Source: Squalus acanthias (taxonomy: Eukaryota). Taken from it: a stretch of 64,000 nt of DNA. The stretch covers positions 155,002,001 through 155,066,000 of the forward strand of contig CM059431.1 in NCBI GenBank assembly GCA_030390025.1, written 5' to 3'. The position numbers and the translations under genes were made by a program. The notes beneath the pieces are model-generated. The model was not told where the DNA came from, made no database searches, and saw nothing but the letters and a program-made list of their open reading frames with translations. Below are positions 1,041-60,101 of the stretch, piece after piece (the first letter of the stretch is position 1; every line of letters begins with the position of its first letter).

Positions 1041-1172
1041 AATCCAAAGAATTGGATTTAGGATTGACTGTTGTGCCTGTAAATGTACAAGTCATTCCAA
1101 AGACACTTGGAATGTCAGAGGCATGGAAGATGTGATTTAGTATCTGTAGGACAGGGCCTGGGATTTCACAGG

Positions 1173-4450: not shown

Positions 4451-4464
4451 AACGTTAAAGTGTC

Positions 4465-7009: not shown

Positions 7010-9920
7010 AGAGTATCCAGGGCAATTTGACACAGTGGATCCAAAATTGGCTTCGTGGCTGGAGGCAGAGCTTGATGGTCGAAAGCTGTTTTTGTGATTG
7101 GAAGCCTGTGTCCAGTAGTGTACTGAAGGGATCGGTGCTGGGTCCTTTGCTGTTTGTAGTGTACATTAATGATTTAGATATGAATGTAGGTGGTATGATC
7201 AGTAAGTTTGCAGATGACACGAAAAATGGTGGGGAGGTAAATAGCGAGGAGGGAAGCCTCAGGCTACAGGACACTATAGACGGGTTGATCAAATGGGACA
7301 AACAGGGGGCTATAAGGGGAGAGGAGCTAAACACGATCAAAATCACTAAGGAAGTGGTACTCGGTAAAATAATAGGACTCAAGGCGGATAAATCACCTGG
7401 ACCTGATGGCTTACATCCTAGAGTCTTGAAGGAATTGGAGGTAGGGATTGTAGATGCATTGGTAATAATTTTTCAAAACTCCCTGGATTCCGCTAAGGTC
7501 CCGGCAGACTGGAAAACTGCAAATGTAACACCCTTATTTAAAAAGGGCAGTAGACAGAAGGCTGGTAACTATAGACCGGTTAGCCTAACATCTGTGGTAG
7601 GTAAAATTTTGGAGTCCATTATTAAGGAAACAGTAACAGGACATTTGGATAATCATAATTTAATAGGACAAAGTCAGCATGGTTTTACGAAGGGGAAGTC
7701 ATGTTTGACAAATTTGCTGGAGTTCTTTGAGGAAGTAACGTATAGAGTGGATAAAGGAGAACCAGTGAACGTAGTGTATTTAGACTTCCAAAAGGCATTT
7801 GACAAGGTGCCACACAAAAGATTATTGCTTAAGGTAAAAAATCACGGGATTGGGGGTAATATTCTGGCATGGATAAAGGATTGGCTATCTAACAGAAAGC
7901 AAAGAGTTGGGATAAATGGTTCATTCTCAGACTGGCAATCAGTAACTAGTGGTGTTCCACAGGGGTCAGTGCTGGGTCCCCAACTCTTTACAATCTATAT
8001 TAACGATTTGGAGGAAGGGACCAAGTGTAACATATCAAAATTTGCAGATGATACTAAGATGGGAGGGAAAGTAGTGAGTGAGGAGGACATAAAAAACCTG
8101 GAGGGGACATAGACAGGCTAAGTAAGTGGGCAGAGATTTGGCAGATGGAATACAACACTGGAAAGTGTGAGGTGATGCACTTTGGCAGGAAAAATCCTAG
8201 AGCAATTTATTATCTTAATGGCAAGAAACTGGAGAGTACTGAAGTGCAAAGGGATCTGGGGGTCCTGGTGCACGAAACTCAAAAGGTTAGTATGCAGGTG
8301 CAGCAAGTGATTAAGAAGGCAAATGGAATGTTGGCTTTCATTGCTAGGGGGATAGAATATAAAAATAGGGAGGTATTGCTTCAGTTGTACAAGGTATTGG
8401 TGAGACTGCACCTGGAATACTGCATACAGTTTTGGTGTCCTTACTTAAGGAAAGACATCCTTGCTCTCGAGGCAGTGCAAAAAAGGTTCACTCAGTTAAT
8501 CCCGGGGAAGAGGGGGTTGTCATATGAGGAGAGGTTGGGTAGATTGGGACTCTACTCATTGGAGTTCAGAAGAATGAGAGGCGATCTTATTGAAACATAT
8601 AAGATTGTGAAGGGGTTGGATCGGGTGGATGCGGGGAGGATGTTCCCGATGACGGGTGAGACTAGAACTAGGGGACATAGTCTTAGAATAAGGGGCTGCT
8701 CTTTCAAAACTGAGATGAGGAGGAACTACTTCACTCAGATCGTGGAAGGTCCATGGAATATGCTGCCACAAAAAGCTGTAGAAGCTACATCATTAAATAA
8801 ATGTAAAACAGAAATAGACAGTTTCCTAGATGTAAAGGGCATTAAGGGTTACGGGGAGCGGGCAGGAATTTGGACATGAGTCTAGGTTCGGATCGGTCAT
8901 GGCCCTGTGGGTAGTGGAGCGGGCCCAGGGACCGTGTAGCCTGATTCTGCTCCTATTACGTGTGTGCAATTATTTTAGATGCAGGAGATGGTTCTGTGAT
9001 AGTACGCAGTAGATTGGCGGTAAGGATCAGATCAGCCATGATCTTATTGAATGGCGGAGCAGGCTCGAGGGGCCGATTGGCCTATTCCTGCTCCTTTTTG
9101 TTATGTTCTTATGTAACAGTGGCAAATGGAACTTAAGCCTGAAAAGATTGAGGTGATGAATTTTGGGAGGACTGACAAGGCAAGGGAATAAACAATGAAT
9201 GGTAGGACCCTAGGAAGGACCGAGGATCAGAGGGACCGTGTTGTGCATGTACATAGATCTCTGAAGGCAGCACGACAGTTAGATAAGGTGGTTAACAAGG
9301 CATATGGGATACTTGCCTTCATTAGCCGAGGCATAGATTTTAAGAGCAGGGAGGTTATGATGGAGCTGTGCAAAACGCTAGTTAGGCCACAGCTGGAATA
9401 CTGTGTGCAGTTCTGGTCGCCACACTATAGGAAGGATGTGATTGCATTGGAGAGGGTGCAGATGAGACTCACCAGGATGTTACCTGGGCTGCAGCGCTTC
9501 AGCTAGAAACTGGACAGGCTGCGGTTGTTTTCCTTAGAGCAGATAAGACTGAGGGGATACCTGATTGAGATGTACAAAATTATGAGGGGCATAGCTAGGG
9601 TAGATTGAATGGAACTTTTCACTTAGTAGAGTGGTCAATAACCAGGGGGCATAGTTTCAAAGTAAGGGGCAGGAGGTTTAGAGGGGATTTGAGGAAAAAC
9701 ATTTTCACCCAGAGGATGGTTGGAATCTGGAACTCACTGTCTGAAAGGGTGGCAGAGGGAGGAACCCTCACAACATTCAATAAACATTTAGATGAGCACT
9801 TGAAACGCCATAGCTTAAAAGGCCACAGACCAAGTCTGGAAAATGGGAATCAAATAGACAGGTCATGATGGCAGCGCGGTCCCGAAAGGCCTCTTTCTGT
9901 GCTGTATAACTCTATGACTC
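7010..9920 (+). mobile_element. CR1 LINE 3' fragment, host of a nested insertion
   Basis: RT motifs at 7027-7300 (GSVLGPLLF, KFADD). It resumes at 9115 (aacagtggcaaatgg) and continues through ORFs 9195-9506 and 9605-9868 to a 3' tail. Confidence 0.9.
7306..9114 (+). mobile_element. Nested 5'-truncated CR1 LINE with AACAG target-site duplication
   Basis: KSPGPDGLHPRVLKEL through the RT and C-terminus (ORF 8145-8879). AACAG occurs at 7301-7305 and 9115-9119. Confidence 0.92.
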
Positions 9921-9989
9921 TGTGAGAGAGTTTGATCCAAGGGATGCACACAGTTTGCCACGTGGCTGAAGAGTTAGACATGTGTATCG

Positions 9990-11370
9990 CCATCTCCAGC
10001 CTCCCTTTCCCCTCAATGTTTTGTCGCCTCACGAATCTCTGCCCATCTTTCTCACAACTTCATATTTGAATCTCTCCAATCGGGTTTCTGCTCCTGACAC
10101 AGCACTGAACTGACAATAATAAAAGTCAGAAATGAAACGTTCTATGCCTGCGAAAGTGGTAAATTATCCCCCCTCATTTTTCTTGAGCTCTGCAGCCTTT
10201 ACACGGTCCAGCACAACATCCTCCACCGCCTCTCCTCCGTTGTCCAGCACAGTGGGACTGTCCTTGCTTGGGTTCACTTTTAACCATCCAGTCGTACCCA
10301 GCTAATTTTCATCAAGGGCTTCTCTTCCCTCTGCCGCACTGTTACCCTGGAGACTCCCGTAGATCCCCTCTCTCCCCCTCTTATTTCTCATCTGCATGCT
10401 GCCCATTGGAGACATTATCCGAAGACAAGTGATCAGCTTTCACATGTACGCCAACAATTATCTTCTCCACCTCTCCACCACCTCTCCCGCCCCCTCCACT
10501 GACTCTGCTTTCTCACGCTGCTTGTCCGACAGTCAGTCTGAGATATGCTACACGTTTCTCCAAATAAACATTGGTAAGACCGAAGACATGGTCTTCGACC
10601 CCCGCCACAAATTGTCTTCCCTTGTGGTGATTCCATCCCCGTCCAGCTAGTGTCTCCGATTGAACCAGACTGTTTACAAGCTCAGCATTCTATATGACGA
10701 CAAGCTGAGCTTCCGACCCGATATTCTCTCCAACACAAACACCGCCTGCTTCCACCTCCGTAACATCACCCATCTTTATCCCTGCTTCAGTCCGTCTGCT
10801 GCTGAAATCCTCATCCTTGCTCTGATCACCTGTAGACTCGAGTTTTCTAGTGCTCTCCGGGTCGGCTTTGTCCTTTTACTCTCCGTAAACTTGGGTGGAT
10901 CCAAAATGCTGCTCACCGATCACCACTGTCCTTGCGAACCTACATTGGCTCCCGGTCCCCCAGCACCTCCAAATTACCATTCGCATCCTCGTTTAAATCC
11001 CTTCATGGTCCTTTTCCTTCCAGTCTCTGTCACATCCTTCAGCCGTACAAGCCCCCAGCACCAAGGTCTCTCTATTCCTCCGGCTCTGGGCGCGATTGCA
11101 TTTCTCCATCTCCTCAGTCCATCTATGGCGACTGTGTCTTCGGCTGTCCGGGTTCTCTTATCTGAAATCCCCCACCTAACGCTCTCCAGCTTCTTCCCCT
11201 CCTATTAAGATGCTCCTAAACCCGATTTATTTTACCAACATTTTGGACCACTCCTCCTTCTAAATCCTTTCTTCAGCAGCCATCTTTTATCTGATTCGGC
11301 TCCTGTGAAGCACCTTGGGATGTTTGTCGATGTTTAAAGCGCTGTGTAAAGGCAAGTTATTTTTGTGACT
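9990..11370 (+). mobile_element. L2-clade LINE 3' fragment, degenerate
   Basis: Remnants read MLP.GDII...SFHMYA..., LQINIGKTE and FHLRNI..L.P..S..AAE.LI.A. An L2-type tail (ctcctgtgaagcaccttggg) is present. Confidence 0.8.
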
Positions 11371-14076
11371 TATGTGTTTATTATACTAGGTATGAAAAAG
11401 CAGAAAAATGAATATTATAAGATTTCAAACTTAGTTCTAAATTAATTCCGGAAGATAACTTCAACTATAGTTTCGAGAGATTACTGAGCCGAGACTGAAA
11501 CTACATTTCTGCAGTTCGGAAAGGATAGGACGTGGCTAATAGTTTTATTGTACATACGTGTGTGGACGCACACACACATCGAGACACGCGCACAAGTGAA
11601 GAATTGTGATTGTGAAATAGCAGTCAAATCTACCACTTGTATATTTATGGCCAAATCTGAGATTGTCAGACACCGAAATATATTCCAGAAACCAATGTTG
11701 TGCATCGCTCACTGTTTAAAGTTACATGATTATTAACATTATTCATTAATGTTAATATTAGTGGATCAGCGGTAAACGTGCTCACCTCCTACAGTGCTCA
11801 TCAGTCAGGTGCTCACACCATATGGTCAATATATTCAAATAGAAGCAACAACCAGGACACATCTCCATGAACAAATGGACAATGTCACTGCCCATAGAGA
11901 ACGAAGACATCACACCCAGCTGTATATTGTGTGTGGAGAGATATCATACTCATAATCTAGCAGAATTTAATGTCAAAGTTCAGCAAATCAGAATTATTAA
12001 ACAAAATCTGTGAAACAATATATTATACCACCAGACTGTAAAACCGTGTGAAGGATCATTTAATTCATCAACGATCACCCGCTCCATATTTCCCTGCAGA
12101 ATTTTCTCCACCTCAGAAATAAGGCTGGTTTTCGCCTGCACTGTGTGAGTAAATCTCACCAATGGGGACTCCCAGTGCGGAGTCGTGGCCGACGGCAGCC
12201 TATCTGGAACTCCGTGGTGGATTTCAACAACACCAACTTGTATTTATATAGCGCTTCTAACGTAGTAAAGCGTCCCAACGCGCTTCACAGGAGTATTTTT
12301 GACAAACAATTGACACCAAGCCACATGAGGAGAAATTAGGGCAGATGACTAAAAGCTTGGTCAAAGAGGAAGGTTTCAAGGAGCGAGGTAGGTTTTAAGG
12401 AAGTTTATGTTGGGAAATCCAGAGCTTAGGGCCTAGGGAACAGAAGGCAGCGCCAGCTGTGGTTGAGCGAATATATTCAGGGATGCTCAAGAGGGCAGTA
12501 TTATAGGAGCGTATTTATCTCGGAGGTGGGGGTATGGTGGGGGGCATTTCTTTATTCGTTAATGGGATTGGGCGACGCTGGCAAGGACAGAATTTATTGG
12601 CCATCCCTAATTGACCTTGAGAAGGTGATGATGAGTTGCCTTCTTGAACCGCTGCTGTCGGTGGTGTGGCGAAGGTACTCCCACAGAGCTGTTAGTTAGG
12701 GAGTTCCAGGATTTTGAACAAGCGACGATGAACGAACGGCAATATGTTTCTATGTTAGGATGGTGTGTGACTTGGAGGGGAACTTGGAGGTGATGATGTT
12801 CCCATGCGCTTGCTGCCCTTGTCCTTCCAGGTGGAAGAGGTCGCGGGTTTGGGAGGTGCTGCCGAATAATTATTGGCGAGTTCCTCAGTGCATTTTGTAG
12901 ATGGTACAGACTGCAGCCACGGTACGACGGTGGCGGAGGGAGCGAATGTTTAAGTTGATGGATGGGCTGCCAATCAAGCGGGCAACTTTGTCCTGGATTG
13001 GGTCGAGCTTCTTGAGTCTAGTTGGAGCTGCACTCATACAGGGAAGTGGAGAGTATTCCATCACAATCCTTACCTGTTCCTTGTAGATGGTGGAAAGGAT
13101 TTGGGGAGTCAGGAGGCGAGACACTCGCCTCAGAGTACCTAGCCTCTAACCTGCTTTTATTGCCACAATATTTATGTGGCTGGTCCAGTTAAGTTTCTGG
13201 TCAATGGTGACCACAGGATGTTGATGGTATGGGATTCGGCGATGGTAATGTCGTTGAATGTCAATGGAGGTGGTTCGACTCTCGCTTGTTGGAGATAGTC
13301 ATTGCCTGGCACTTCTGTGGAGCGAACCTGCCACTTATCAGCCCAGGTCTTGTTGCATGCTAGCCTGGACAACTTCATTACCTGAGGAGTTGTGAATGGC
13401 GCTGTTCATGGTACATTCATCAGCGAATATACCCATTTCTGACCTTATGTTGGAGTGAAGTTCATTGATGAAGCAGCTGAGAATGGTTGGTCCTCAGGCC
13501 TCTGCCCTGAGGAACTCCTGCAGCGATGTCGTGGGGCTGTGATGATTGACTTTCAACCACCACAACCATCTTCCTTTATGCTAGGTATGTCTTCAACCAG
13601 TTGAGTGTTTTCCCCCCGATTTCCATTGACTTCAGTTTGAGTAAGTTTCCTTGATGCCACACTCGTCAAATGCTGCCTTGATGTGAAGGGCAGTCATTCT
13701 CACCTCACCTCTGGAATTTAGCTCCTTTGTCCATGTTTGGCCAAAGGCTATAATGAGGTTGGGAGGCGAGTGGTCTTTGCGGAACCCAAACTTGGCATCA
13801 GTGAGCAGGTTATTGGTGATTAAGTACTGCTTGACAGAACGGTCGAAGATGCCTAGCTGATTGCTCATGATTGACAGTAGACTGATGGGGCAGTAATTGG
13901 CAAGTTTGATTCGTCCTGCTTTTTGTGTACAGGACACACTTGCGCAGTTTTCCAGTCGTATAGATGCCAGTGTTGTAGCTGTACTGGAACAGCTTACATG
14001 GAGGCACGGCTAGTTCTGGAGCACAAGTCTTCAGCACGATAGCCGGGATGTTATCGGGGCCTATTGCCTTTGCTGA
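11340..14076 (+). repeat. Segmental duplication unit, copy 1 (matches about 25660-28403)
   Basis: Non-repeat sequence at 11370-12230 is colinear with 25680-26550, and the same L2 tail and nested LINE follow in the same order. Confidence 0.9.
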
Positions 14077-16530
14077 AAGCGATTGGAGGTAGGTAGCGGC
14101 AAAGCTATCTAGGGAATTGAAAACAAGGTTGACACTTTTGAAATCGAGGCGTTTTTTTTACCGGGAGCCAATGTAGGTCAGCGAGGACAGGGGTGATGGG
14201 TGAACAGTACTTGGTGCGACTTTGGACACAAGCACCCGAGATTTGGATGATGTCAAGCTTACGTAGGATAGAACGTGAGAGGCCTGCCAGGAGTGCGTTG
14301 GAATATTCAAGTCTAGAGGTACCAAGGCATGGATGAAGGTTTCAGCAGCAGATGAGCTGAGGGAGGGGTGAAGGCGGGTGATGTTACGGAGGTGGAAATA
14401 GGCGGACTTTGTTATGCGGCGAATATGTGGGCGGAAGCTCATTTCAGGATCAAATATGACACCAAGGTTGCGAACAGTGTGGTATGGCCTCACAGATGTT
14501 AGGGAGAGGGATGGAGTTGTCAGGGATCGAAAACAATATCTTCCCAATATTTAACTGGGGAAAAATGGATGTCGGTCAAGCAGTCTGACAATTTAGAGAC
14601 AGTGGCGGGTTCGAGAGAAGAGGTGGTGAGGTAGAGCTGGGTATCGTCAGCGTACATTTGCAGGGACGGAGGAGTCGAGGGTTGTTTGTTTTGAGGTGGG
14701 GGGGGGGTGATGACGGCAGATTGGAAGGAGAGGGGGACAGTACCCGAGGAGAGAGAACCGTTAACAATGTCAGCTTACAAAAGGAGCCAGAAAAGGAAGT
14801 TGGGTGATCAGCAGTTTGGTGGGAATAGGGTCGAGGGAGCAGGAAGTGAGTCTCATGGACAAGATGAGCACGAAGAGGTCAGGAGGGGAGATCGGAGAGA
14901 AGCTGGAGAAAGTTGCGATTTCAGGGCTATGGCAGGGGGAGCCAAAAGGGAAGGTTTGGCCTGGTGGGCTAGGGGACGGAAGAGAAGTGGCTGAGGCCAC
15001 TGATTGCATGCTCTCAATCTTAGAGTAAAGAAGTTCCTGAGCTCCTCGCACTTGTTGTTGGAGGTGAGGGTGGAGGAGACGTGGAAAGGGGCTTAAGAAG
15101 ATGGTTAGCAATGGAGAATAGAAACCAGGGTTTAGCTTTGCATTCCAGAATTATTCTGGAATAGTGAGCAATTTTGGCATAAGAGAGGTGGACCCGATAA
15201 TGCTTTATCTGGTCCAGCCAGATCTGGCAGCGAATGACTTAACCAATTTTCCACCATATCCTTTCAAGTCTGCATCGCTTGGACTCAAGGGAGTGAAGAT
15301 GAGTGCCGGACCAGTTGAAACAGCCAGGGTGAGACAGTGTAATTGGTTTAATAGGGACTACGGCATCGAAGGTGGTGGTGAGTGTATGGTAGAGCAGATT
15401 GGTAGGTGCGAAAATTTTGTGGTGAATGGAGTCCAAGGGCTGTATAGTTGGGATTTCGTAAGTGCATTTGTAAGAGAGTTGGGAGAGAGTTTTTTCCTGG
15501 GGCAGCATCAAAATGAAGTAGTCTTTGGGGTGAAGGGGATGTAGATGTAGAGCGATGGAAGGAAATGGTCAGAGATGGCTTTACTAGCGATTGACACGAT
15601 GGGAGTAGCGAGGCCAGGGGAGATGGCAATGTGGAGGCTGTGTACATGATTATGGGTTGGGGAGTTTACTTGGAGTTAGAGATTAAGGGCAGATAGGAGG
15701 GCAGTGAAATCAGAGCAGAGAGAGCATGATGAATTGCGAGGGAGTTTGAAATCACCGAGGATGAGAAGTCGCTCGGTGCAATTGCTGAGGGAAGAAAGCA
15801 GTGACTCTATCTCGGTGATAAATTATAATGGTACTTGGGTGGGCGGGAGAGAACGAGAACTTTAAATGAGAGGTGAGAGTTGTGCAATAAGGTGAGATGC
15901 TCAAAAGGAGGAGAACGTGGTGGAGGAGTAGGGTGGCAGACCAAGGCATGATTTGGTGATGAGAACCACACTGTCGCCATCGCAGTCTAGGCAGGGCAAG
16001 TGGTGAAAGGTATAGCCAGGCGGGGAGGCTTCACTTAAGGGTAAGGCTTCTACACGCCTCATCCAATTTTCCATCAGGGCCATGATGTCGATGCACTCAA
16101 TCACGATAAGCTCATGGTTAGAAAGGATCTGGTTCGCAAGAGAATGGCCCTGACGGAGGAAAATGGGGAGAGGTTCGGTGATGTCTAACCAACCGCCAGT
16201 GTCACAGTCTCAGCGCTGGGAGGAGGGAGTTGGACGGGAAGGAGATTGAGAAGATTAGCCCCCAGCCGGCGGCCTGGGCGGGAAGTTCGGGGGAAGAGTT
16301 GCATAATACAGTTGGGGTTGCTGCTCGTGAGGAGGCAGCAACGAGTGCCACGGTGGGCCTTTCGGAGGATGTCAAGAGAGGCACAGAGGGAAGCTGTAGA
16401 CTTATCTAAGATGGACGGCAGCAGGAGAGTAGGAAGGTCGAAGAGCAATGAATTGTTGGTGCAGGAATTTGGGAGTGCAGTGTATCTGAGATAGGAGAGA
16501 TGAAAGGAGGCATAATGACAGGAGAGAAGG
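12225..16530 (-). mobile_element. L2-clade LINE (endonuclease to 3' end, with deletions), interrupted at about 12545-14076
   Basis: Minus-strand ORFs contain VRNLGVIFDPEMSF..HI..ITKSAYFHLRNI (14158-14547), SCSLDPIPTKLL (14770-15111) and IDIMALMENW...PPGYTFHHLP (15901-16104). Confidence 0.85.
12545..14076 (-). mobile_element. CR1-group LINE 3' fragment nested in L2
   Basis: Minus-strand ORFs contain LKTCAPELA, NYCPISLLS, LHIKAAFD and LTPQILSTIYK.QVR..MEYS. Confidence 0.85.
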
Positions 16531-17277
16531 AAAGAATGAGTTTGCATTTACTGTTGCTTTCTTTAAATATCTGTGCATTATTTATTAGCTCTTTAGGCAA
16601 TCAATCGAGAGTTACAACTATTTCTAATTGCTCAGCAGCATCTGGTGATTCCAAGCAATAAATTTCGAACTGGATTCTCAGATCACCGACCGCAACCATC
16701 ATATGTTAATTTTCTGGATATATGATAACATATGAATATTTGCTCGTGATTTATCCACGCTTTTGTGAGGTTTAGACTCGATTCCTTAAACGACATTTGT
16801 GCACTGCCAGATAGAAACTCCAGAGCTCGACTGCTTCAATTCATCAATTCACCCTCATTTCCACTTATCCATAATCCCATTCGTCGGTGACCGACATTCA
16901 CTTGCTATCTCAGACAATTTGTGAAAGACTCCTACTCATCTACAATTCCCTTTACGTTCTCGAGCGTCATAATTTTACAGTCTTCTTCAGAAACCCTCTT
17001 TTATTTCTGGTCCATCCTCTCCCTTTGCTGTGGTCCCCAGATTATTGGTTCCTCTGCTCCGGACTCCAACAAAGTCGTCAGCAACACTGGTTGGAATCCG
17101 TTGCCTTGGGCTTCCACTCTTTACTTCCTACTTACTTTAAACAACCTCCACATGTTGCAAGATCTAGGTCGTTTCTCTTAACTCTACGAAAAAGAGGCAG
17201 CTTTAACTCTAAATTCCTGCTCTGTGAGGCGCCATTGGCCGTCTCACTGTTTGAAAGACTCTAAAGAAAAGCTGCTG
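16530..17277 (-). repeat. About 750-bp repeat, probably a decayed L1-like 5' UTR/ORF1 fragment (copy 1)
   Basis: Closely matches 23480-24222. The minus strand has an atggcgcc 5' motif and a broken DLE...NLL.GI.DAAE-like remnant. The family assignment is tentative. Confidence 0.55.
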
Positions 17278-17356
17278 CTCTAAAAGTTAGTTCAAATTAT
17301 TCATTGCTTCAAAGCAAACATAGTATTGTAACCTGTTCTCATTTACACTTTTACAG

Positions 17357-17526
17357 AAAATTCAGATACCAAAATGTTACTAATGTTGGCAAGCTACACG
17401 GATATCCAGCTTGGAAGAATTATCGGCTGCTACCGTCAGAGACTAGAATCGTCAATTGAAGAATTCGTGGAAGCTGTTAGTCAATCGCTCTTAGATGCAA
17501 ACGTGTTTACTGAAACAATTCATAAG
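17357..17526 (+). CDS. Exon A of a putative death-fold/CARD-like membrane-anchored protein (first half of the domain)
   Basis: Acceptor ttttacag|, donor aag|gtatgc, 170 nt, phase 1 to 0. Translates NSDTKMLLMLASYTDIQLGRIIGCYRQRLESSIEEFVEAVSQSLLDANVFTETIHK. Homologous to the exon at 59935. Confidence 0.85.
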
Positions 17527-17910
17527 GTATGCTACATATATGTTGGAATTGTCTAAATGGCCGCCTAAATTTAAGACGGGTTGGTGAGAGATTGTTCAAG
17601 TCGGTCTGGTACGGCAGGGCTTTGCTGGTTTAGAGGTTGTATTCTCTGGCGACTTTATGTTCGCGGCGCAGGTGTGGTGGTGCGAGAACTTGATAGCCAT
17701 GGGGTGAATGATAACAGCCTTCTCACGGATCACCCTTTTACATGCTCTTAGATTACAGCTAATATCGTCTCAAAGGAAACAGAACTTGTCGTTTTTAAAG
17801 CGTTAAATAAGAAGAGAACAGCATCTCATGTTATAACCATGAGTTCATCGTTGAAGAATCCTCGACACAAATATCGTCAGCTGCATCATCAATTATTTTT
17901 TTTCTGTCAT

Positions 17911-19219
17911 ACGGTCAGAATTTGGGCTGTACGCTGATGATTGCAGTGTTCAATTCCATTCCCAATTCCTCAGGTAACTAAACAGTCATGCCCGTATGCA
18001 ACAAGATCTGGTCAACATGCCAGTTTTGGTGGATAATTAGCAAGTAACATTTGTGCCGCATAAGTGACAGGCAAAAAGCATCTGCAGAAAGAGACTCTCT
18101 AATCAACTGATAATTCACTGGAAAACGTCTTGCAGTTAAGCTATTTACCTTGGCCGTATTTCTGCAGGGATTCGGGTTACTGTTGTTTCTGTAATCGGAC
18201 ATAAATGGCATCCTATCCAAGGAGCAATTAATCCAAATTTCAGGATTGCAAGGAACACGCCAAGACACAATGGCTCGTATTTTCCGATGCCTACGTGTGA
18301 GTACGCACTGTGTACACACCCGTAGGGACATCGGTAATGCCGGTTTCAGGCATGCGAAGCGCATGCGCTGAAAACCGGCATTTCCGATCTGTCAAGAATC
18401 ATCTTGACAGATCGGACGTTTGCCCCAGAGAAGGGCCTCTGCGGGTGGAGATTTCCACTTGCTGCAGGACATCCGCTCTTGAAAACACTTAAAAATCGTA
18501 CTCCTGGTAAAAGCAAGGCGTAAGGCCTGCTTTTCCCAGCACAAGAGTTTAAAAAAGTAAAAAAATACATATTTTTTCGCTCATTTATAATTTTAAAGTA
18601 CTTCTAAATAAGGTAAGTTTAATTTTAGCTCCGTAAAAATCTTTAATTATTTTTTTCAAAACATTAAATTTTTGTTTAAAATATTTCAATTAATATAAAT
18701 GTTACTCATTTTAAAAACGCGATGCTTTTTAAAAATGTATTTATTGTTTTGATTTGTTTTTGGGGTGATCTCCATTCATACCTTTGACAGGTCTATCTGT
18801 CAAAGGTATGAAGGGAGATTCCCTTCTATTCTCTCGCCTGTCCACCTATCTCAGGGGCTCATGAGCTTCGCAAGCGTCCCTGGGATAAGGTGGGCCCTGC
18901 GCATTTCTACTGTGGACAGGCGCAGGATCGGAAATGGCTCCTCCTCGTGAGCCCTCAGGAAAGGGCGTAGATTTCTTCCTGATAGGAGGCATCCACATGC
19001 AGGAAGCCTCCTAACGGAAGTTACGGGCCAAATATTGTAAAGAATATTTGAATAAGATACCACTAGCAGCACAAGCATCAAGCGTCCTCAGCAAAGACCC
19101 AATGGATATCCTGGAGCTAGATAGAACATCTAATAGCCACATATATCTAATCTCAGGAAAATAAATTAACTGACATATTTAAAATAAGCTGTCACTCACG
19201 GCCGAGAAATTCTGTCCGT
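17911..19219. mobile_element. MITE-like non-autonomous DNA element (outer), containing a nested element
   Basis: Terminal inverted repeats acggtcagaattt (17911-17923) and aaattctgtccgt (19207-19219) match at 12 of 13 positions. Confidence 0.6.
18272..19029. mobile_element. MITE-like element with TIRs and internal hairpins
   Basis: Ends are ggctcgtattttccg and cggaagttacgggcc. Internal palindromes are present and a related copy lies at 19799-20616. Confidence 0.75.
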
Positions 19220-19798
19220 TCTTTAGCAAAGCAGACGTGCATTTTAATTAAACGAGACGATTCGTGTGAGTCACTGCCGGTGGCACCAATTTCTAGAACT
19301 TTCTACTGAACATATCCAAGTCGTTGCTTCCATTTCTTTTCTCCTTCCAACTTCACTGCATGGCTGATTCTAGCTGCCTATCTACCAACTTCCCTGCCAC
19401 AGTTATTACTTATAATTTACAACCCCAAAAAATCTGCATTATTCTACGTCTCACCAAGCACTCGCAAAATTCATCCAGTCCATGGGTTACGCAACTTTAA
19501 GCCTTCACGTTCATTCTTCTGCCCAATGCTCAGGGACATCAACATTACCGGCATCTCCTGTCATGACAGCCATCATGTCCTATTTTAAATAAAATTCCGA
19601 GTCTCATCCATGATGTCTATCTGATCTCTTTTCGAATATTTCCTGAAGTTATGTAACACATATATTAATAAAGCATGGTGAATAAAGCTGATTAGTTGAA
19701 GGTAGCGATTGTCTGATGATGCTCTAGGAAGTTATTATATGAAGACTTTAGCACCTACGTGTTAATGTAAGCGGCACGGCTGGGAGCTTGGCGTTAAT

Positions 19799-20616
19799 GG
19801 GCCGGATACTCCGATCCTTACGGATGTGTACGCGCTGTGTACACAACCGTAGGGACATCGGAAATGCCGGTTTCAGGCATGCCAAGCGCATGCGCTGAAA
19901 TCAGTAATTTCCGATCTGTCAAGAATGCTCTTGACAGATTGGACGCCTAGCCTGGAGAAGGTCCTCTGCGGACGAGTAGTTCCGCTTTCTGGAGAACCCC
20001 CGCCTGCAGAAAACCCTTAGAAATCGTATGCCTGCTAAAAGCAGGGCTAAGGCTAGCTTTTACTATGTTTTGGGGGTGAATTCCATTCATATATTTGACA
20101 GGTCTTCCTGTCAAATGTATGAAGGGAGATTCCCTTCTCTGATTGGCTCCCTACGTGATCCCAGGGACGCTGCGAACCGCCTGCGCCGCTGGGATACGTG
20201 GCCCTGCGCACCGGAAGTTTGGAGAGACCAAGCAACGGAACTCTGCGCCTCCCGGGACCCTCCGGTCCAGGCACAGATTTTTCCAGATCGCAGTCCTCCG
20301 CCCGCGGGCGGCCTGCGAAAGGAATTTCTGGGCCACTTTGTTTTTGGGGTGATCTCCATTCATATATTTGACAGGTCTTCCTGTCAAGTGTATGAATGCA
20401 GTTTTCCCTACTTTGATTGGCTCCCCATGGCCCACATGATCCCAGGCACCCTGTAATCTGCCTGTGCCTCTGGGATAATAGGGCCCTGCGCAAGTGGGGA
20501 TTGGAGAGGTCCAGGATCGGAATCGTGTGCGTCCCGGGATCCCGAAGGTAACGGCTTAGATTTTTCCAGATTGCAGACCTGCGCACCCAGGATTCCTGCG
20601 ATCGAAAAAACTGGCC
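19799..20616. mobile_element. MITE-like element, same family as 18272-19029, with an internal duplication
   Basis: Shares tgtgtacac..ccgtagggacatcgg and gatctgtcaagaat..tcttgacagat. The right-hand module occurs twice (about 20065 and 20340). Confidence 0.75.
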
Positions 20617-22083
20617 ATTAACTATGAGGAGTTCATTATCATGCACAAGTGGTGGGACAAGAATTGCGGAAGCGACATATTGAAAAAATTGAGACATTTT
20701 AGCGAGGGTATCAGAGATATGGATGACTTTAAATATCTAAAGTATAGAAGTGATGTACGGGTGGAAGAGGGAGTGTGCTATCTGCCACGTATCCAGGACG
20801 TGAGATAGATGGGTACGTTTCCAGAACAACAGGGAAGGAATGAGTATTGGATCCATTTCTGCAAACGGATAACGGATATCTAAGAAGCAATGATATCATT
20901 AGAATTCAGAAGATCAGTAAATCAAAGCAATATATATGTACAGGATAACCAATTTCAACAAATCAAGAACACACTGGCCCAAATATATTGGGACGGAATG
21001 GATCAGGCAATTCCGTCGGGAAGCAATACGATGGTACCAAGTAGGAAATGATTGCGATACGATATATAGGAATTACACGATAATAAAACGGGTGGAGCAC
21101 ATACAAGAATTACTTGGATGTGCATAGAAAAGGAAATGAAAAGTAGATTTACAAATTGAATGTAGGATGTTGATTATATAAATCAAATCAAAGAAACATA
21201 GAGGTTAACGAGCAGAAGGTAAAACGTTGACATTTTAAGAATTTTGGAGATTGGCATGAGACAGTATTCGGGACAATGATCACATTTCATAAACACTTCA
21301 AATAAAATACTTACTCATAAGACAGGACTATTCAGGTATTCAAAGCAAATGGTTCACATAGAAGATGAAGGATTGACTGATAAGTTTTTGCTGCTGTTTC
21401 GATGAATGATACTTGAAATGAAAGGAATTCTATTTGCAATCAATGGTAAAGAAATACGGACGCGTGGAACACGAGCCGACCATTCGCTATCAGCACCTGT
21501 CATGTGACTGGCCGATTCCAATTTCATCCGCATTGTTTTACAATCTGTGCAGTTTGAGTTTCTAAAAGCACGTTGTGAGCTTTCCAGAACATTGCTGTTA
21601 CTAACAACAAATAATGCTTCATTTTGCACGAACCATATTCCTGAAATCTGACTTTTGCCCTTTTATTTGGCACTTAACATTTTTTCATATCAGTTGAGAA
21701 AATTCAGCTTCCCTCGGTGACTCAACGCTGCTCCTCTCTATCTCTGCAACATCCTCCAGCCCTACAATCCTCCGTGATCTCTGTGCTCATCAAATTCTGA
21801 ACCATTGCGCAACCCCGATTCTCTTCACGCCACCATTGGTAGCCGTGCGTTGTGCTGCCTCGGTCCAAAACAAGGAATTAACTCTGTAATCCTCTCCGGC
21901 CGTCTGCCATTCTCTGCTCTTTCGAGACGCTCCTTAAAACTTATCTCGTTGACATAGATTTTGGTCACCTCATTATGAGCTTTTCTATTCATTCCTCCCA
22001 TAAAGAGGGTGAGAAACAAAACCGACGTTTCTTAGCTCATTTTGTAAAATACTTTGTTCAATTTGATTGCAATATTTTTTTAG

Positions 22084-22282
22084 GAAATCAGTACACTTGC
22101 TGAAAGTCAGCGCAGAAACGATGCTTCCCAACGCATTTTCGATACCGTGCTGGAAAAGGGAGCTCGGGGAGAAAGAACAATGTGGAACATATTTCTTCAA
22201 TTGCAGAATACAAAACCCAAACTGAACGCGACATTGTCAGAGATACAGAACAGAGATACAGGGACAAAACATGATCTAGAAG
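22084..22282 (+). CDS. Exon B of the putative CARD-like membrane-anchored protein (second half of the domain)
   Basis: Acceptor tttttttag|, donor aag|gtaggc, 199 nt, phase 0 to 1. Translates EISTLAESQRRNDASQRIFDTVLEKGARGERTMWNIFLQLQNTKPKLNATLSEIQNRDTGTKHDLE, in frame with exon A. Confidence 0.85.
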
Positions 22283-23479
22283 GTAGGCGATGTCAAAATC
22301 TAATTGCAAAAGATCTCGTTTACTTTCAGAGTAAGAGAGTTCATTATTTATGTCGAGGAACTTATTTTAATTTAATGTCCAGGAGGATGAAATTCTAATT
22401 GTCGGGGACACACAATGGCCGGGTCACATTTGCCGACAGTTACACACGCCCGATATTCAGCTCAATTCAAGTTTATTCGCGCGCAACATATAATCGGCGA
22501 TGGATGCGATACGGCCTGTGTTTTCTCCTCGCCATAAAACGGCCGGTATTGCATCTGCTGCCCGTTCTTCGCTCGGTCCTATGATCCCTTCCTTTGACTC
22601 CAATAAAATTTGAGAGGCTGCGCTGTGCCCACACAGAGCCGGTAATCAGGGAAATCTCTCAATTCAGGGAAACTGATGTAATCTTCGTCTCTTTCACGGT
22701 AATTGCGCTCTTGAATTCCCCACTAAAAGTTTGACTGAAAGGGAAGGGTGTAACTGGATTGCAACAGCGTATTGAATTCTAAACAAATGTGATGGCCAGA
22801 AAATCTAATTTTGATTTTGTGCAGAGACAACTTTATTCATTTAAATAAAAATTAACATTATTCTGAAAATGTAATTATTTTAAAAGATTTTTCCTCCTCA
22901 TTTCTGCTTTGCATTTTCCCCATGTTAGAGCCCCAATATTTGTTTCTTTCGCTGAATCATTTTTTTAAATGTTAGAAGTTTAACAGCTTATTCACTTCCT
23001 TGTTCGCTGTCTGGAAGAATTCGGCGTTTTGGTTCGATGCTTAAACAGCCTGTTGACTTCACAGCAGCTTGCACTCGGGATTCCCAATGATGCTCCGTTG
23101 ATTTGAATTACACTTCGGAAAACCTGATTGCGAGATCTTTGTGTCAAGCTTACTTTGTGGCCGCAGCAAATGCCTTTGCTTCGCGCTGACCGCTAATTCC
23201 GGGCCGTTCTTTATTTAGTATCTCTCAGGTCTTTCTACTTCCATCGATAGGCATTTTAGAATCAGGTACATTCAATTATGATTCCTACCAGCTATTGTCA
23301 TGTTTCAGATGTGGTATTTGAGATTTAGTTATTATTTCAATTTGATATCAATAACTTTTTCCCAATGGTGTGTTCTTGTAATTGTTGTATTGATAGCTAT
23401 CAAATTTACTTTGAGTACATTTAGATTCACAGTATTTCAATTTCTCCGGTCCGTATCGCAGTTTAGTTTTCCCAAGAAA

Positions 23480-24222
23480 GAAGGAATGAGCTTGCATTTA
23501 CTGTTACTTTCTTTAACTATCTGTGCATTATTTATTAGCTCTTTAGGCTAACAAGCGACAGTCACGACTATTTCTAATTGCTCAGCAGCATCTGGTGATT
23601 CCAAGCAATACATTTCGAATGTATTCTCAGATCACCGTTCGCAACCATCATATTTTAATTTTCTGGGTATATGATAACATATGAATATTTTCTCGTGATT
23701 TAGATACGCTTTTGTGAGGTTTAGACTCGATTCCTTAAACAACTTAAGGGCACTGCGATATAGAATCTCCAGAGCTCGACTGCTTCAATTCATCAGTAGA
23801 ACCTCATTTCCACTTATCCATAATCCCATTCGTCGGTGACCTACATTCAGTTGCTATCTCAGACAATTTGTGAAAGACTCCTACTCATCTACAATTCCCT
23901 TTACGGTCTGGAGCGCCTTAATTTTACAGTCTTCTTCAGAAACCCTCTTTTATTTCTTGTCCATCTCTCCCTTTGCTGTGGTCCCCAGATTATTGGTTCC
24001 TCTGCTCCGGACTCCAACAAAGTCGTCAGCACCACTGGTTGGAATCCGTTGCCTTGGGCTTCCACTCTTTACGTCCTACTTAATTTAAACAACCTCCACA
24101 TGTTGAAAGTACTCGGTCTTTTCTCTTAAATCTACGAAAAAGAGGCAGTTTAACTCCAAATTCCTGCTCTGTGAGGCGAAATTGTCCGTCTCACTGTTTG
24201 AAAGTCTCTAAAGAAAAGCTGC
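23480..24222 (-). repeat. About 750-bp repeat, copy 2 of 16530-17277
   Basis: Direct colinear match along its length; compare ORFs 16887 vs 23836 and 16921 vs 23870. Confidence 0.85.
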
Positions 24223-24430
24223 TATTCTTCGCAACATTATATGCTTTTATTCTCAAGTTGACACCATCCTTTACTTTCTTACATATTCACGGATGGTTCA
24301 TCTTTCTCTTAGAGTCTTTATTTTCTCTGACTGTTATGAAATAACAGCAGCTTTTCGAATTGTTTGAGACTCTTTGGACTGTCAATGAATACTTGAAAAA
24401 CTAATCTCAAACATATTCTATAATTTACAG

Positions 24431-24612
24431 AGATTGACGATACTGCAATAATGGACGAACAAGGCAAGATAATCGTCACGGTTGCAGTCTCATTTGCAAT
24501 ACTGGTGGGAGCAGTCGGAGTTCTGGTGACGTGTTGTTGTCAAAACCGGAAAAATCGCGGTAAGATTGCACCGCCGACAGTAAAGATGCAGGAAATACAA
24601 GTAGTGAAATAA
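24431..24612 (+). CDS. Exon C: linker, transmembrane helix and basic tail (terminal coding exon, or TM exon ending at 24559)
   Basis: Acceptor aatttacag|, phase 1, in frame with exon B. Translates EIDDTAIMDEQGK-IIVTVAVSFAILVGAVGVLVT-CCCQNRKNRGKIAPPTVKMQEIQVVK*. An internal donor cgcg|gtaaga lies at 24559/24560. Confidence 0.8.
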
Positions 24613-25659
24613 CCAGTTGTATTTTGGTGGAGAAAAAGACATACACTTATCACTTTGTTATTCTCTCCCTAAATTATCCACCTCTACGTCCCCTGGTAAT
24701 CATTAAACTTATGCTCAAAAACCTACTTTTTTAACAGCACTTCATCTATATCTTCTTGAACCCTTATTATCATTTTCGTTGTAGCGGGTGTGTGCGTTCT
24801 TGCATCAGTAAAACTTCCTTTAGGCGCCTTGGAATATTAATTTTCCACGTTAAAGACGCCGTACAAATGCAAGTTGTTGATGATGAGGTTTTGTCTTTAT
24901 TAATAGAGATAACTCTCACGCCTTTCTCCGACCCGACTCCCGCAAATACCTCTGTGTTTTATAATGATGTACGTTCAGTTCTTTAATTATACCAGCAACA
25001 GTCATGTATTGGCTAAATTGTTGATGACTGCGTGATTATTTTCTATTCATATCCCAAACTGTTTTCCCAAAATTATGTCCTTATTACTCGTTGTAATGAT
25101 ATCCACAAAAATTAGTGTGATTGCAATTGAGTTCACAATATTTCCATTTCACTTGTTAACCCGATCAACGTTTCCTTTCGCTGTTCAATGGTATGTTTTG
25201 TACTTTTGAGCACCCGCTTGATCTTGGAGTTAAGGGAAAGAAATGATTGTAAATTCATCAATCGATGGGTTTCGAGTCGGACGCCCCCGTAAACTGCCAA
25301 CGCCGCATCCCTGCCAATAAAAGGAAGATAACTATTTTATTATCTGATAAACTAATTTCATTTAAATCACAGCTGGATGCCGGTTAATTAAGCAACGACA
25401 AGAGGAAGCATCTTTGTCGGCGGGGGGAATAGAGGGAATAACGAAATACATGTGAACCATAAGGAGTTAGTTAAGCATGGGGAGGAAGAATTAACAAAAA
25501 ATAAAGTAGGCAGATGCCCGGATGAAGTAGAGTACGATGCGAGAAAAGTATGGAGTGCGAAATGTGAATTACATACGATTACATAGGAGATACCTCAAAG
25601 AACAGGCGATTCCGCCCAACCAGACGATGCCGGCGTTTGTGCTCCACTCAAGCTGTGGA

Positions 25660-28403: not shown

Positions 28404-29079
28404 AATCCACATCTGAGACTAGAGAGCGGAATTTATAAAACTGTTGGAGCTGAAACAGAATATTTATGAAATATTGAAAAATTACTAGCAGGGAAATGGA
28501 AGGCTGTGTTCGAGTGTGAGAGATGAGGTGACTCGATGTTAAAAAATGCAATTAAAATAGGATCAACATTACAAAGATTTGGATTGAGGATTGACTGTTA
28601 TGCCTGTAAATGTACAAATCATTCCAAAGATATTTGGAAAATCAGAAGGATGAGAGATGTGATTTAGTATCGATAGGACAGGGCCTGGGATTTCACTGGA
28701 CTCAGAGATATGCTCCTGGTCATAACATTTTGAGGAGGAGAAAAATAAATGTGGACGCCATAATCAATAAAGGGTTCCAGGACAGCGCCAGAAGAACAAT
28801 AAAACACTTTTATTTCTATAGCATCTTTAACGTATTAAAACGTCCTAAGGCGCTTCACTGGAGCGTTATCAAACAAAATGTGATACCGAGCCACATAAGG
28901 AGATATTCGGACAGGTGACCAAAAGCTTCGCCAGAGAGGGAGGTTTTAAGGAGCGTCTCAAAGGAGGAGAGAGATGTTTTGAACAAAAGGATCTTCCTGG
29001 GCGCTATATTAAGGTAGAATCCGTGCATTTTAAAGTAAAATAGTGAAAAGACACTATTACACATATTGAATAATTCGTT

Positions 29080-30560: not shown

Positions 30561-31289
30561 ATAAAGGTAAGCATTAAGATGGTAAAGAGCAATGTTCCCC
30601 CTGATATTTTTTAGGTGCGGCTCCCTTTAATGAGCTGCGCAGACCATTCACAATTTCGCGCATGTGCCAAATCTACCATAGAAAAGTCGGTAAGCGGCCT
30701 GAGCAGGATCTCCAGATAGCTGCGCGGTCGTGCAGCTGAGCAGGAACGTTGCAGTGGAGGTGAGATAGAGGGGGAGCTGGGAGAAACTCGTGGACGGTGA
30801 AGGTTTTGCAGATAAAAAATAGTTCCTTTGATAGAGGAAGTGAAAATGTTGATGTAATGGAGGAGGATGTGGGTCCACAGTTAGAGATCACATTACAGAA
30901 GGAATTGGATCAGAGAAAAATAGCTGAGGTGGATAAGTCACTGGACCGAGAGATAATGCACCTCAGGCTGTTAAAGGAAAAATCAGTGGGGAGATAAAAA
31001 GGACTCTGAGCACAATTTTTCTATCCTCATATAATATCGGAAATGTACAGGTGGACTGAAGAGCCCAAACAATGTCGCTGTTAAAATGCGCTAGAGAAGG
31101 ATCTGCGGGTAACTGAAGACCAATTCATCTGTTGTTTGTGAGAAAGCTGTTCGAACCTGTAATTCCAGGTTGAATTAATGAACATTTAGAGATAAAGCCG
31201 AGGCTGGAACAGATTAGCTGTAGACAAGTTGTATTTGACGAATTTGATGCAGCTTTTCTGAGACGTGCCTGTATAGATCTGCTATTGAA

Positions 31290-33272: not shown

Positions 33273-33273
33273 T

Positions 33274-38880: not shown

Positions 38881-39062
38881 TTCGTGTGACAAATATCCGC
38901 ATTTGAGACTACAGAGTGGAATTAATGAAGCTGTTGGAGCTGATACAGAATATTCATGAAATAGTGAAACATTTTGAGCGGGAAAAAGGAAGGTTGTTTT
39001 CGAATAGAGAGAGATGAAGTCACCTGGTGTTAATAAAAATGAAATTAAAAAGTGTCAATATT

Positions 39063-59934: not shown

Positions 59935-60101
59935 ACCCTGAGGCTCAAATAAACGAACTACTGGCAAGTTTCAGAGACATTGATATTCGTAGAATTACAG
60001 TATTCTACCGTCAGAGATTGGAAGATGCTATTGAAGAATTTGCTGATTCTATTGGTTTGGCGTTACTGAATAAAGATATAATTGATGACATAGAATATCA
60101 G
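59935..60101 (+). CDS. Exon paralogous to exon A (first half of the CARD-like domain)
   Basis: Long polypyrimidine tract and ctgtag|, donor cag|gtaaaa, 167 nt, phase 1 to 0. Translates (D)PEAQINELLASFRDIDIRRITVFYRQRLEDAIEEFADSIGLALLNKDIIDDIEYQ. Confidence 0.85.

Follow-up and report, generated by a model that had tools for sequence, protein, structure and literature searches.

Exon structure of the locus

Three small exons of a Squalus acanthias locus encode a CARD and a membrane anchor, and their joined frame is open over 177 aa. They lie in a 64-kb window (the whole stretch of DNA analyzed), and every feature described here is on the + strand. Exon A (17357..17526, 170 nt) encodes the first half of the CARD unit, with the helices up to mid-domain, between a phase-1 acceptor (pyrimidine-rich and ending in AG) and a phase-0 donor (GTATGC). 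Exon B (22084..22282, 199 nt), with an AG acceptor in phase 0 and a phase-1 donor (GTAGGC), encodes the second half and a short linker. The coding part of exon C (24431..24612) follows an AG acceptor and supplies an acidic linker, a membrane segment, CCC, a basic tail and a TAA stop (24610-24612). Counted from the ATG at 17374, 153 + 199 + 182 nt join in compatible phases to 534 nt, i.e., 177 codons plus stop, and the product would comprise a CARD of ~110 aa, an acidic linker of ~20 aa, the 21-residue membrane segment, CCC and the basic tail. Splicing and translation thus bear out the original prediction of three AG/GT exons forming a stop-free frame of this length; the motifs that it quoted from exons A and B (YRQRLE..IEE; VLEKGARGERTMW; PKL; EIQ) are all found on direct reading. 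The AG and GT ends are kept in 5/5 copies of exon A and 7/7 copies of exon B examined, this locus being counted in both.

The putative start codon is the first of two in-frame ATGs in exon A (17374 and 17383). The frame is open from the acceptor up to this ATG, and the residues encoded there (NSDTK) match the internal linkers of multi-unit relatives, so that the structure of exon A is that of an internal exon, and a further exon may precede it. With an acceptor and conserved residues ahead of the ATG, the true N-terminus of the product may lie upstream.

The predicted transmembrane segment (24469..24531, protein residues 131-151) consists of 21 uncharged hydrophobic residues, and its Kyte-Doolittle mean over 19 residues (2.75) is the highest among 868 six-frame pieces of the window. 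Because chance pieces reach 2.5-2.6, the reality of exon C rests on its 12 conserved copies and not on hydropathy. The segment is followed by CCC (24532-24540), which reads CCW in most paralogues, and by a basic tail of 23 residues; from CCC to the end (24532..24609) there are 26 residues, with six K/R and one D/E. The hydrophobic segment, cysteines and short basic tail attributed to exon C from its letters are thus all there. With 26 of the 177 residues after it, the single segment lies within ~30 residues of the C-terminus, as in tail-anchored proteins. A protein started at ATG 17374 would lack a hydrophobic N-terminus (the best 9-residue mean is 1.58), and exon A itself has an acceptor. Exon C also contains a donor-like GTAAG (24560..24564) that is kept in 12/12 copies; if used, it would make exon C a symmetrical 129-nt exon of phase 1-1. 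The likely 3′ untranslated region (24613..25321) ends near an AATAAA (25316-25321), 704 nt past the stop.

At this locus, then, what comes after the CARD unit is the anchor exon with its stop, and no NACHT intervenes. As had been claimed, the CARD appears to stand outside the NACHT context: tblastn of four NACHT proteins (P0005, P0013, P0018, P0019) against the 64-kb window matched CARD exons only and no NACHT. The nearest NACHT exon (window-equivalent 67.95-69.4 kb) lies behind its own CARD exons. On the same strand, 35 kb downstream of the locus, the CARD exon A2 (59935..60101, phase-1 acceptor) opens a separate gene of classical NLR type, whose exon B (B2), FISNA, NACHT and LRR exons are located 0.2-10 kb past the end of the window.

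Family and fold of the CARD unit

Exons A and B together make up one CARD unit of an elasmobranch family whose units are split over two exons. An HMM of this family was derived from 26 homologous units in 19 database proteins, with the window's own sequence left out, and it matches only three six-frame pieces of the window: exon A at profile 1-56 (E 4e-17), exon B at profile 57-114 (E 2e-23) and A2 (window 59937-60101, E 1.4e-14). All other pieces score E 3.3 or worse, and this distance places exons A and B well beyond chance. Exon A meets exon B at profile position 56|57, and the two halves are contiguous (offset 0) and gapless in 26/26 units of the 19 proteins; exons A and B thus show the profile match, the intron at 56|57 and the phases 1 / 0 / 1 of a two-exon unit. 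Exon A is 57.9% identical to units of P0004 and P0008. Exon B has 23 database matches (best E 2.1e-38), nine of which carry a Pfam NACHT domain, and the named relatives of the unit are all sharks or rays, in support of the earlier reading as a CARD-like front module of expanded elasmobranch NLRs. These NLRs, automatically named 'NACHT, LRR and PYD domains-containing protein 3/6/12-like' by NCBI (e.g., XP_078087540.1 of Mustelus asterias, P0005), share the two-exon unit of ~116 residues at 48-59% identity, often in tandem and with a conserved inter-unit linker. However, they continue into NACHT and LRR, whereas here a membrane-anchor exon and a stop follow.

Pfam CARD (PF00619) is recognized in the relative P0009 (30.3 bits, cut-off 23.9), with P0007 (23.4) and P0008 (22.9) just under the threshold; exons A, B and C scanned singly, which splits the CARD into half domains, gave no Pfam CARD match. 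With hhalign, the unit alignment of 27 rows, the locus's own sequence among them, matched the eight bona fide CARDs of P0012 (Pfam CARD E 9.3e-93) with a probability of 90.2% and E 1.5e-6 over 59 columns. Neither exon B nor the family profile had a sequence match in the PDB, and exon A returned four chance-level rows (E 0.4 or more), none of them a CARD. In a protein atlas, exon B adjoins CARD clusters (scores 0.85, 0.79 and 0.78), which serves as a lead only.

The fold was examined on the AlphaFold model of the basking-shark homologue P0008, which is 52-58% identical to exons A and B and whose domain is modeled at pLDDT 92-98 over residues 149-258. This model, a six-helix antiparallel bundle, superposes on solved CARDs: CARD entries fill 45 of the first 46 VIA rows, at Z 6.0-11.8 and with rmsd 1.7-3.4 over 82-97 residues, among them ARC (Z 11.8), NLRC4 (11.4), NOD1 (11.4), Apaf-1 (11.0) and NLRP1 (10.9), and the first unrelated fold appears at Z 4.8. 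Foldseek comparison with CARDs gave target-normalized TM-scores of 0.71-0.83, with E-values of only 0.09-2. The death fold originally proposed, when checked by AlphaFold and Foldseek, is modeled as a CARD in the homologue (Z 11-12 to ARC, NLRC4 and NOD1). Judged by this model and by the hhalign result, the domain encoded by exons A and B is predicted to have the CARD fold.

Copies, arrays and transcripts

The locus had been described as a single hidden gene, a view that does not hold: it is one copy in a field where CARD units number at least 150 and anchor exons 12. All copies of exon B found in the genome (at least 150) lie on one chromosome arm, within a 6-Mb field, and the 12 copies of exon C lie on the same arm. 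Eleven of the latter are open and one has a stop; two have charged residues in the hydrophobic segment. A CARD exon B lies at most 9 kb upstream in 5/12 copies, and the other seven, including the L009 copy, are orphans with no CARD exon within 9 kb upstream. At the five loci, exon C stands behind the final unit of a CARD array that counts 1 to ~9 units, this locus being the one-unit case; among the matches listed, the arrays ahead of an exon C at the sister loci contain 9, 7, 6, and 5 copies of exon B. The distance from the last exon B to exon C is 2.0-2.2 kb at this locus, L015, L019 and L020, and 5 kb at L014. Exon lengths (170/199/182 nt) and AG/GT ends are kept in the sister copies, and at L015 the three exons join in an open frame. 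The CARD-then-anchor order thus recurs at four other loci of this genome, and also in one basking-shark gene model.

Array Q, a paralogue with nine units, is 94.3% identical to this locus across an entire 8.9-kb block that takes in the introns. The locus shares both the first-unit 5′ flank and the 3′ end of array Q at 94-95%. The 5′ flank (9115..16524, shared at 94.9%) would hold the leader exon or promoter, if there is one. It is followed by the 3′ part of an inter-unit intron (16525..17276), which also occurs before exon C (23475-24223) and by which exon A can be recognized as a member of a tandem array. The shared block extends ~8 kb beyond exon C, and the 20 kb after array Q's exon C contain no CARD or NLR exon, so that the anchor exon looks like the end of the gene.

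Open exons amid decayed repeats had been taken as an argument for selection, which fails here: the block shared with array Q is ~94% identical with its introns counted in, and the exon identities (93-98%) do not exceed that of the block, exon divergence being about equal to flank divergence. Among close copies there is no purifying selection by pN/pS on exon B (1.27 over 21 pairs) or exon C (~2; pS 0.041, pN 0.081 over 66 pairs), and exon A shows some constraint (0.42). At family depth exon B is clearly kept, with a stop in 2/112 listed matches at E ≤1.4e-12 (57-100% identity).

None of the listed sequencing runs is recorded as RNA; no read or contig was seen joining 22282 to 24431, and no locus-specific transcript was seen among their contigs. 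Positions 482-652 of a 734-nt contig of run X1 match 17354-17524, i.e., exon A almost end to end, as would be expected of a spliced family transcript. Because 6/171 letters differ and 481 nt precede exon A, the contig probably derives from a multi-unit paralogue and not from this locus. The bins 24046-24679 and 24680-25313 are covered by contigs of 4/4 runs, at family level only (≥90% likeness).

A proposed membrane-tethered CARD and its alternatives

A close counterpart is LOC144671995 of Cetorhinus maximus (XP_078390056.1, P0008), an automatic gene model with no described function, in which CARD units precede a hydrophobic segment and CC near the C-terminus. Its second unit is 58% identical to exon A and 52% to exon B, and its tail aligns in register with exon C at a score reached in 5/1000 shuffles; BLASTP of exon C against this tail gave no significant similarity. 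P0008 differs in having two CARD units, a 42-residue N-terminal extension, two glutamates in the hydrophobic segment, and 40 residues after CC as against 23 after CCC here.

Membrane anchoring of the CARD makes MAVS a signaling platform, and very few CARD proteins are built in this way. MAVS consists of a CARD, a proline-rich region and a C-terminal anchor on mitochondria and peroxisomes, and it resembles the product described here in its N-terminal CARD and in its only membrane segment, which sits at the very C-terminal end with basic residues behind it. In contrast, the 177 residues here include no visible proline-rich region or TRAF-binding motif, and the acidic linker of ~20 residues has no proline. 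By structure, the P0008 CARD resembles RIG-I/MDA5/MAVS entries (Z 9.5-10.9) no more than it does other CARDs such as ARC, NLRC4 and NOD1. A MAVS orthologue was rejected on the lack of proline-rich and TRAF motifs, the lack of PDB sequence similarity and a CARD that is not of the RIG-I/MAVS type. CARD19 (BinCARD) is described as a mitochondrial protein that has a CARD and, at its C-terminus, a transmembrane domain (PMC8997538). It is likewise small, with one CARD, a membrane anchor and little else, and its CARD superposes on the P0008 model with Z 10.7 and rmsd 2.0 over 91 residues, at 16-18% identity and with no sequence-level match. However, CARD19 is a single-copy conserved gene, whereas the family here is multi-copy, array-forming and lineage-specific. 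The CARD-only proteins ICEBERG and CARD16-18 are described as caspase-1 decoys (PMC3775265). They share with this locus a CARD devoid of an effector domain (ICEBERG aligns to the P0008 model at Z 9.6) and an origin by local duplication beside their targets, but they are soluble and have a single CARD, in contrast to the membrane anchor here and the up to ~9 CARDs of sister loci. By analogy, the family is best read as a lineage-specific variant of the membrane-tethered CARD of MAVS/CARD19 type.

Taken together, the three exons may represent the one-unit member of a lineage-specific shark family in which one or more CARD units are capped by an anchor exon, yielding a membrane-tethered CARD-only adaptor or decoy; to this reading we give about an even chance. 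It retains from the original prediction the CARD followed by an anchor with no NACHT, and drops the unique gene and the argument from selection. If exon B is spliced to exon C as proposed, the CARD would face the cytosol, with the C-terminal anchor holding the product on an organelle or the plasma membrane in the manner of a tail anchor. CARD-CARD binding would then recruit or sequester CARD-bearing NLRs of the same family, or their effector. The product could act as a membrane platform, as MAVS does, or, more likely, as a CARD-only regulator or decoy, since it has no effector motif of its own. A bolder and rather doubtful extension is that sharks carry membrane-anchored poly-CARD scaffolds, in which 1 to ~9 NLR-type CARDs on a C-terminal tail anchor, encoded in arrays of variable copy number, would serve as organelle-bound nucleation platforms or tunable sinks for the expanded NLRs; this would be an independent MAVS-like solution with signaling strength set by CARD number. 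If the family is expressed, cartilaginous fish have joined a lineage-specific NLR front module to a membrane anchor, with the number of CARDs varying from 1 to ~9 between neighboring arrays. Such a family would offer a natural system for how CARD valency and membrane localization tune NLR signaling, and would suggest that the NLR expansion of sharks reaches beyond receptors to what may be dedicated adaptors or decoys. Should it not be expressed, the locus is no more than a further by-product of a highly unstable tandem array.

The latter case, also rather doubtful, supposes a young, silent or decaying duplicate, left by unequal crossing-over, whose exons are open only because they have diverged by ~5% and which makes no functional protein. 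The block shared with array Q, in which exons are no more alike than the block as a whole, would fit this, as would the pN/pS ratios of exons B and C, the orphans, stop and charged segments among the exon C copies, and the lack of a locus-specific transcript among the run contigs. However, splice sites, frame, stop and AATAAA are all intact here with nothing disabling, exon A shows a low pN/pS, and exon B is kept at family depth. Exons A and B might instead be upstream CARD exons of the NLR gene at 59935, in which case exon C would either end a short, anchored isoform as an alternative last exon or go unused. A2 has a strong phase-1 acceptor and must therefore be preceded by another exon; exon B, with its phase-1 end, is compatible with A2 (the join, G + AC, is open), the NLR gene follows 35 kb on in the same orientation, and relatives with two or three CARD units before NACHT exist (P0005, P0011/P0027, P0015). 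Nevertheless, this arrangement is unlikely: a polyadenylation signal follows exon C, the block shared with array Q ends ~8 kb past exon C, no CARD or NLR exon lies in the 20 kb behind exon C of array Q, LINE fragments and 9 kb of satellite fill the intervening 35 kb, and A2 is of another CARD subtype, only 43% identical to exon A.

A type I membrane or secreted form, with an unseen upstream signal-peptide exon, the CARD(s) outside or lumenal and the basic tail cytosolic, is very improbable. To our knowledge, CARDs are cytosolic in every known case, and the same CARD unit heads cytosolic NLRs. In addition, tblastn with P0008 found no signal-like exon in the window, the frame from ATG 17374 lacks a hydrophobic N-terminus, and the short hydrophobic stretch with which P0008 begins, a feature that would suit a signal peptide, falls in first residues modeled at pLDDT 32-43. 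Exon C is acidic before the segment and basic after it, with juxtamembrane cysteines on the C-terminal side, and by the positive-inside rule these features would equally fit an N-outside topology. All exons are of phase 1, as in many receptor genes, and exon C would become a cassette if the GTAAG at 24560 were used. The protein-atlas neighbors of exon C (scores 0.88-0.90, leads only) are likewise small single-pass proteins, namely stannin, TMEM52 and glycophorin C.

The proposed three-exon gene and its CARD unit

Three exons that splice into a gene encoding a CARD-like domain and a membrane anchor, with no NACHT, had been proposed for the forward strand, and the exons, their splice ends and their single joined frame are present in the sequence as originally described. 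Exon A (17357-17526) has a pyrimidine tract and AG before it and GTATGC behind it, exon B (22084-22282) lies between AG and GTAGGC, and exon C (24431-24612), again preceded by a pyrimidine tract and AG, ends in TAA. Joined from the ATG at 17374, the pieces (153 + 199 + 182 nt) give 177 codons and a stop; the stretch between the acceptor of exon A and this ATG is likewise stop-free. An AATAAA occurs at 25316-25321.

Scanned one by one, the exons, each carrying half a domain, give no meaningful Pfam match. An exhaustive HMMER search with exon B retrieves 23 proteins at E <= 1e-3 (best 2.1e-38); the named ones are all from sharks or rays, and 9 of the 23 carry Pfam NACHT downstream of the matched region. 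Two matches, P0006 (3802 aa) and P0014 (BAR/SH3), were rejected as repeat-driven chance matches (per-stretch E >= 0.14), and the unit alignment leaves out both of these and P0012. Exon-A-like and exon-B-like stretches are always contiguous in the relatives (junction offset 0 in 26/26 units from 19 proteins), and the A+B product aligns to those 26 units without gaps. A family profile built from the relatives' units, with the window sequence left out, matches exon B (2e-23, positions 57-114) and exon A (4e-17, positions 1-56) among the pieces of the window, followed by an exon at 59937-60101 (1.4e-14); the next piece reaches only E 3.3. Given this adjacency and these profile matches, sequence homology makes the A-B splice as good as proven: two exons with phases 1/0/1 make up the unit. 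Searched against PDB sequences, exon A, exon B and the profile of alignment A1 return either no rows or chance-level ones (E >= 0.4). A word-indexed protein search scored none of 23 candidates for the longer exon B query and none of 159 for the longer exon C query, and found only itself with P0008, the index being too coarse to imply absence.

The Pfam CARD model recognizes the relative P0009 (30.3 bits, cut-off 23.9), P0007 and P0008 falling narrowly under. Compared by hhalign with eight bona fide CARDs, those of P0012, the family scores a probability of 90% (E 1.5e-6). The fold was predicted on a homologue, P0008 (basking-shark XP_078390056.1), the closest anchored relative (58% identity to exon A, 52% to exon B); its second unit has a pLDDT of 92-98. 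The best Foldseek rows for this model are the tandem CARDs of RIG-I and the CARDs of Apaf-1, NLRC4 and NLRP1, with TM-scores by target of 0.71-0.83 and weak E-values (>= 0.09). VIA-align ranks ARC (Z 11.8), NLRC4 and NOD1 (both 11.4) and Apaf-1 (11.0), on a scale where helical bundles with Z below about 13 may be common arrangements; 45 of the top 46 rows are CARD entries, and Z has fallen to 4.8 at the first unrelated one. Taken together, this almost exclusive ranking with CARDs, the full-domain cover and the sequence-profile result make it safe to call the A+B domain a predicted CARD, as judged from the homologue model and profile.

The anchor exon and its genomic copies

The product of exon C begins with an acidic linker, which leads into an uncharged hydrophobic segment of 21 residues; CCC comes next, and the tail contains six K/R and one D/E, so that 26 residues follow the hydrophobic segment. 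The Kyte-Doolittle 19-residue mean of the segment (2.75) is the highest of 868 six-frame pieces, chance pieces reaching 2.5-2.6. A GTAAG within the exon (24560-24564) is conserved in 12/12 copies and, if used as a donor, would create a symmetrical 129-nt phase 1-1 membrane-segment exon; there is no sign that it serves as one. P0008 has a comparable order of two units, a hydrophobic stretch and CC. BLASTP between exon C and the P0008 tail finds no significant similarity. The ungapped in-register alignment of the two scores 36, a value reached by 5/1000 composition-preserving shuffles, which modestly suggests an anchor exon older than S. acanthias.

In the 3.7 Gb genome, exon B yields 435 candidates and at least 150 scored matches, almost all of which lie on the window's chromosome, C7, at 153.7-159.6 Mb, commonly spaced 4.3-6.9 kb apart; the window itself is C7:155002001-155066000. 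CARD-unit exons form a tandem field about 6 Mb wide. Among the matches listed, 2 of the 112 exon B matches at E <= 1.4e-12 (57-100% identity) contain a stop. Exon C has 12 matches (69-92% identity, 11 open), every one in the same region of C7. When 9-10 kb around each copy is inspected, five of the 12 (the studied locus, L014, L015, L019 and L020) are preceded by an exon B at no more than 9 kb, in four cases at a distance of 2.0-2.2 kb; genome coordinates give runs of 9, 7, 6 and 5 exon B copies before the four of these exon C copies other than the studied one. The other seven (L013, L016, L017, L018, L021, L022 and L009) lack a CARD exon in the 9 kb before them (7.5 kb for L009). Among these orphans, L022 has a stop, L013 an arginine in the segment, and L021 an arginine and a glutamate there; in the array-attached copies the segment stays uncharged. 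Lengths of 170/199/182 nt and AG/GT ends are preserved in all copies examined.

Array Q, a sister array with nine CARD units that was read in parts only, matches window 16525-25407 at 94.3% identity with its last unit and exon C, and window 9115-19188 at 94.9% with its 5′ flank and first unit. Hidden CARD copies close upstream of the locus were considered and dropped, since neither window 1-17356 nor the 40 kb preceding the window holds any. Judged by the copies, the identity to array Q and the lack of an upstream unit, the studied locus is, at the level of sequence, an array gene in its one-unit form, sister loci carrying up to about nine CARD units before the same anchor exon. The methionine of exon A was ruled out as a marker of a first unit, since NSDTKM also occurs in internal units of array Q. 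The intron between exons B and C is homologous to the B-to-A inter-unit intron except for roughly the last 200 bp; exon C with its own acceptor thus takes the place of the next unit at the end of the array. An intron segment of about 750 bp is duplicated, lying at 16525-17276 before exon A and at 23475-24223 before exon C. Several arrays of 70-80% identity, among them those at 153.72-153.80, 154.62-154.71 and 155.45-155.51 Mb, lack such an exon C at their end.

In 66 pairs of close paralogues, exon C shows a pS of 0.041 and a pN of 0.081 and has diverged as much as the 3′ flank (0.072 against 0.079); pN/pS is 1.27 for exon B (21 pairs) and 0.42 for exon A (10 pairs), the pairs being non-independent and the counts small. 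The observation made originally is confirmed and its interpretation borne out in part. Open exons as an argument for selection fail at this depth. The exons are open through the youth of the duplication, and constraint is seen solely at family depth, across exon B matches of 57-100% identity.

Transcripts and alternative readings

The verdict on the locus hinges on RNA evidence, and none of the listed sequencing runs is recorded as RNA. Sampled words of exon B are present at 0.31 in one run, X1, and next to absent from five others. A 734-nt contig of X1 (depth 95.7) aligns at positions 482-652 to window 17354-17524 with six differing letters; it covers exon A nearly end to end and then continues into sequence that does not adjoin the exon in the genome, behaving like a spliced transcript. 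A multi-unit paralogue is the likely source, given the 481 nt that precede the match and the 3.5% difference. In all four runs compared with window 12000-31000, contigs cover the bins holding exon C and the following 700 nt, which fits a terminal exon with a 3′ UTR at family level only. Neither the absence of junctions 17526/22084 and 22282/24431 from the 15 joints listed, of a set with 170 more, nor the lack of cover in most of the four runs over bins 20876-21509 and 23412-24045 carries evidential weight.

That the locus yields a membrane-tethered CARD-only protein has about an even chance of being correct. Such a protein, having no effector motif, would act by CARD-CARD recruitment or sequestration of cognate NLRs. 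Its architecture resembles that of MAVS and CARD19, but it is an orthologue of neither: a proline-rich or TRAF region is missing, the sequences are not similar, and in structure it stands no nearer to them than to other CARDs. A tail anchor would suit the short C-terminal tail; acidic residues before the segment, basic ones after it and the juxtamembrane cysteines would likewise be compatible with an N-outside orientation. A type I form led by a signal peptide is very improbable. A silent young duplicate, in line with the paralogue divergences above, is a rather unlikely competitor.

It is less probable still that exons A and B are upstream exons of a downstream NLR gene, with exon C an alternative end. 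That gene, on the same strand, opens with CARD exon A2 (59935-60101) and continues at window-equivalent positions with exon B2 (~64.2 kb), a FISNA-like exon (65.0-65.3 kb), a NACHT exon (67.95-69.4 kb) and LRR exons (71.4 and 73.6 kb), forming a classical NLR; identity to the NACHT protein P0019 is 56-66% over the exons from A2 up to and including NACHT, and 42-63% over those encoding LRRs. The phase-1 acceptor of A2 needs an upstream exon, none was found for it, and exon B of the locus could in principle splice onward to it. Array Q speaks against such a join: the similarity to it stops about 8 kb past exon C, and its own exon C is followed by 20 kb free of CARD and NLR exons. A limited full-text literature search, including the whale-shark genome paper (PMC8455134), shows NLR expansions in sharks but found no description of membrane-anchored CARD arrays in cartilaginous fish.

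Repeats in the window

A 27-bp satellite occupies 48862-58127 (~349 copies over 9.3 kb, 74% matches), with shorter blocks at 31995-32952 and 32960-33273; it is open in several frames and so produces long spurious ORFs. A 45-bp tandem repeat (39061-39721, 14.7 copies, 88% matches) is open in several frames on both strands, and GC-rich repeats of 65/111/280 bp lie at 4479-6215. In the ORF list, a run of long open frames on the reverse strand (42361-46229) marks the putative remains of a LINE-type retrotransposon, with a 487-aa frame that is reverse transcriptase-like by eye and frames of 184 and 147 aa upstream; shorter LINE-like fragments lie on the forward strand at 400-2330, 6985-8879, 9192-9506 and 29792-30094.
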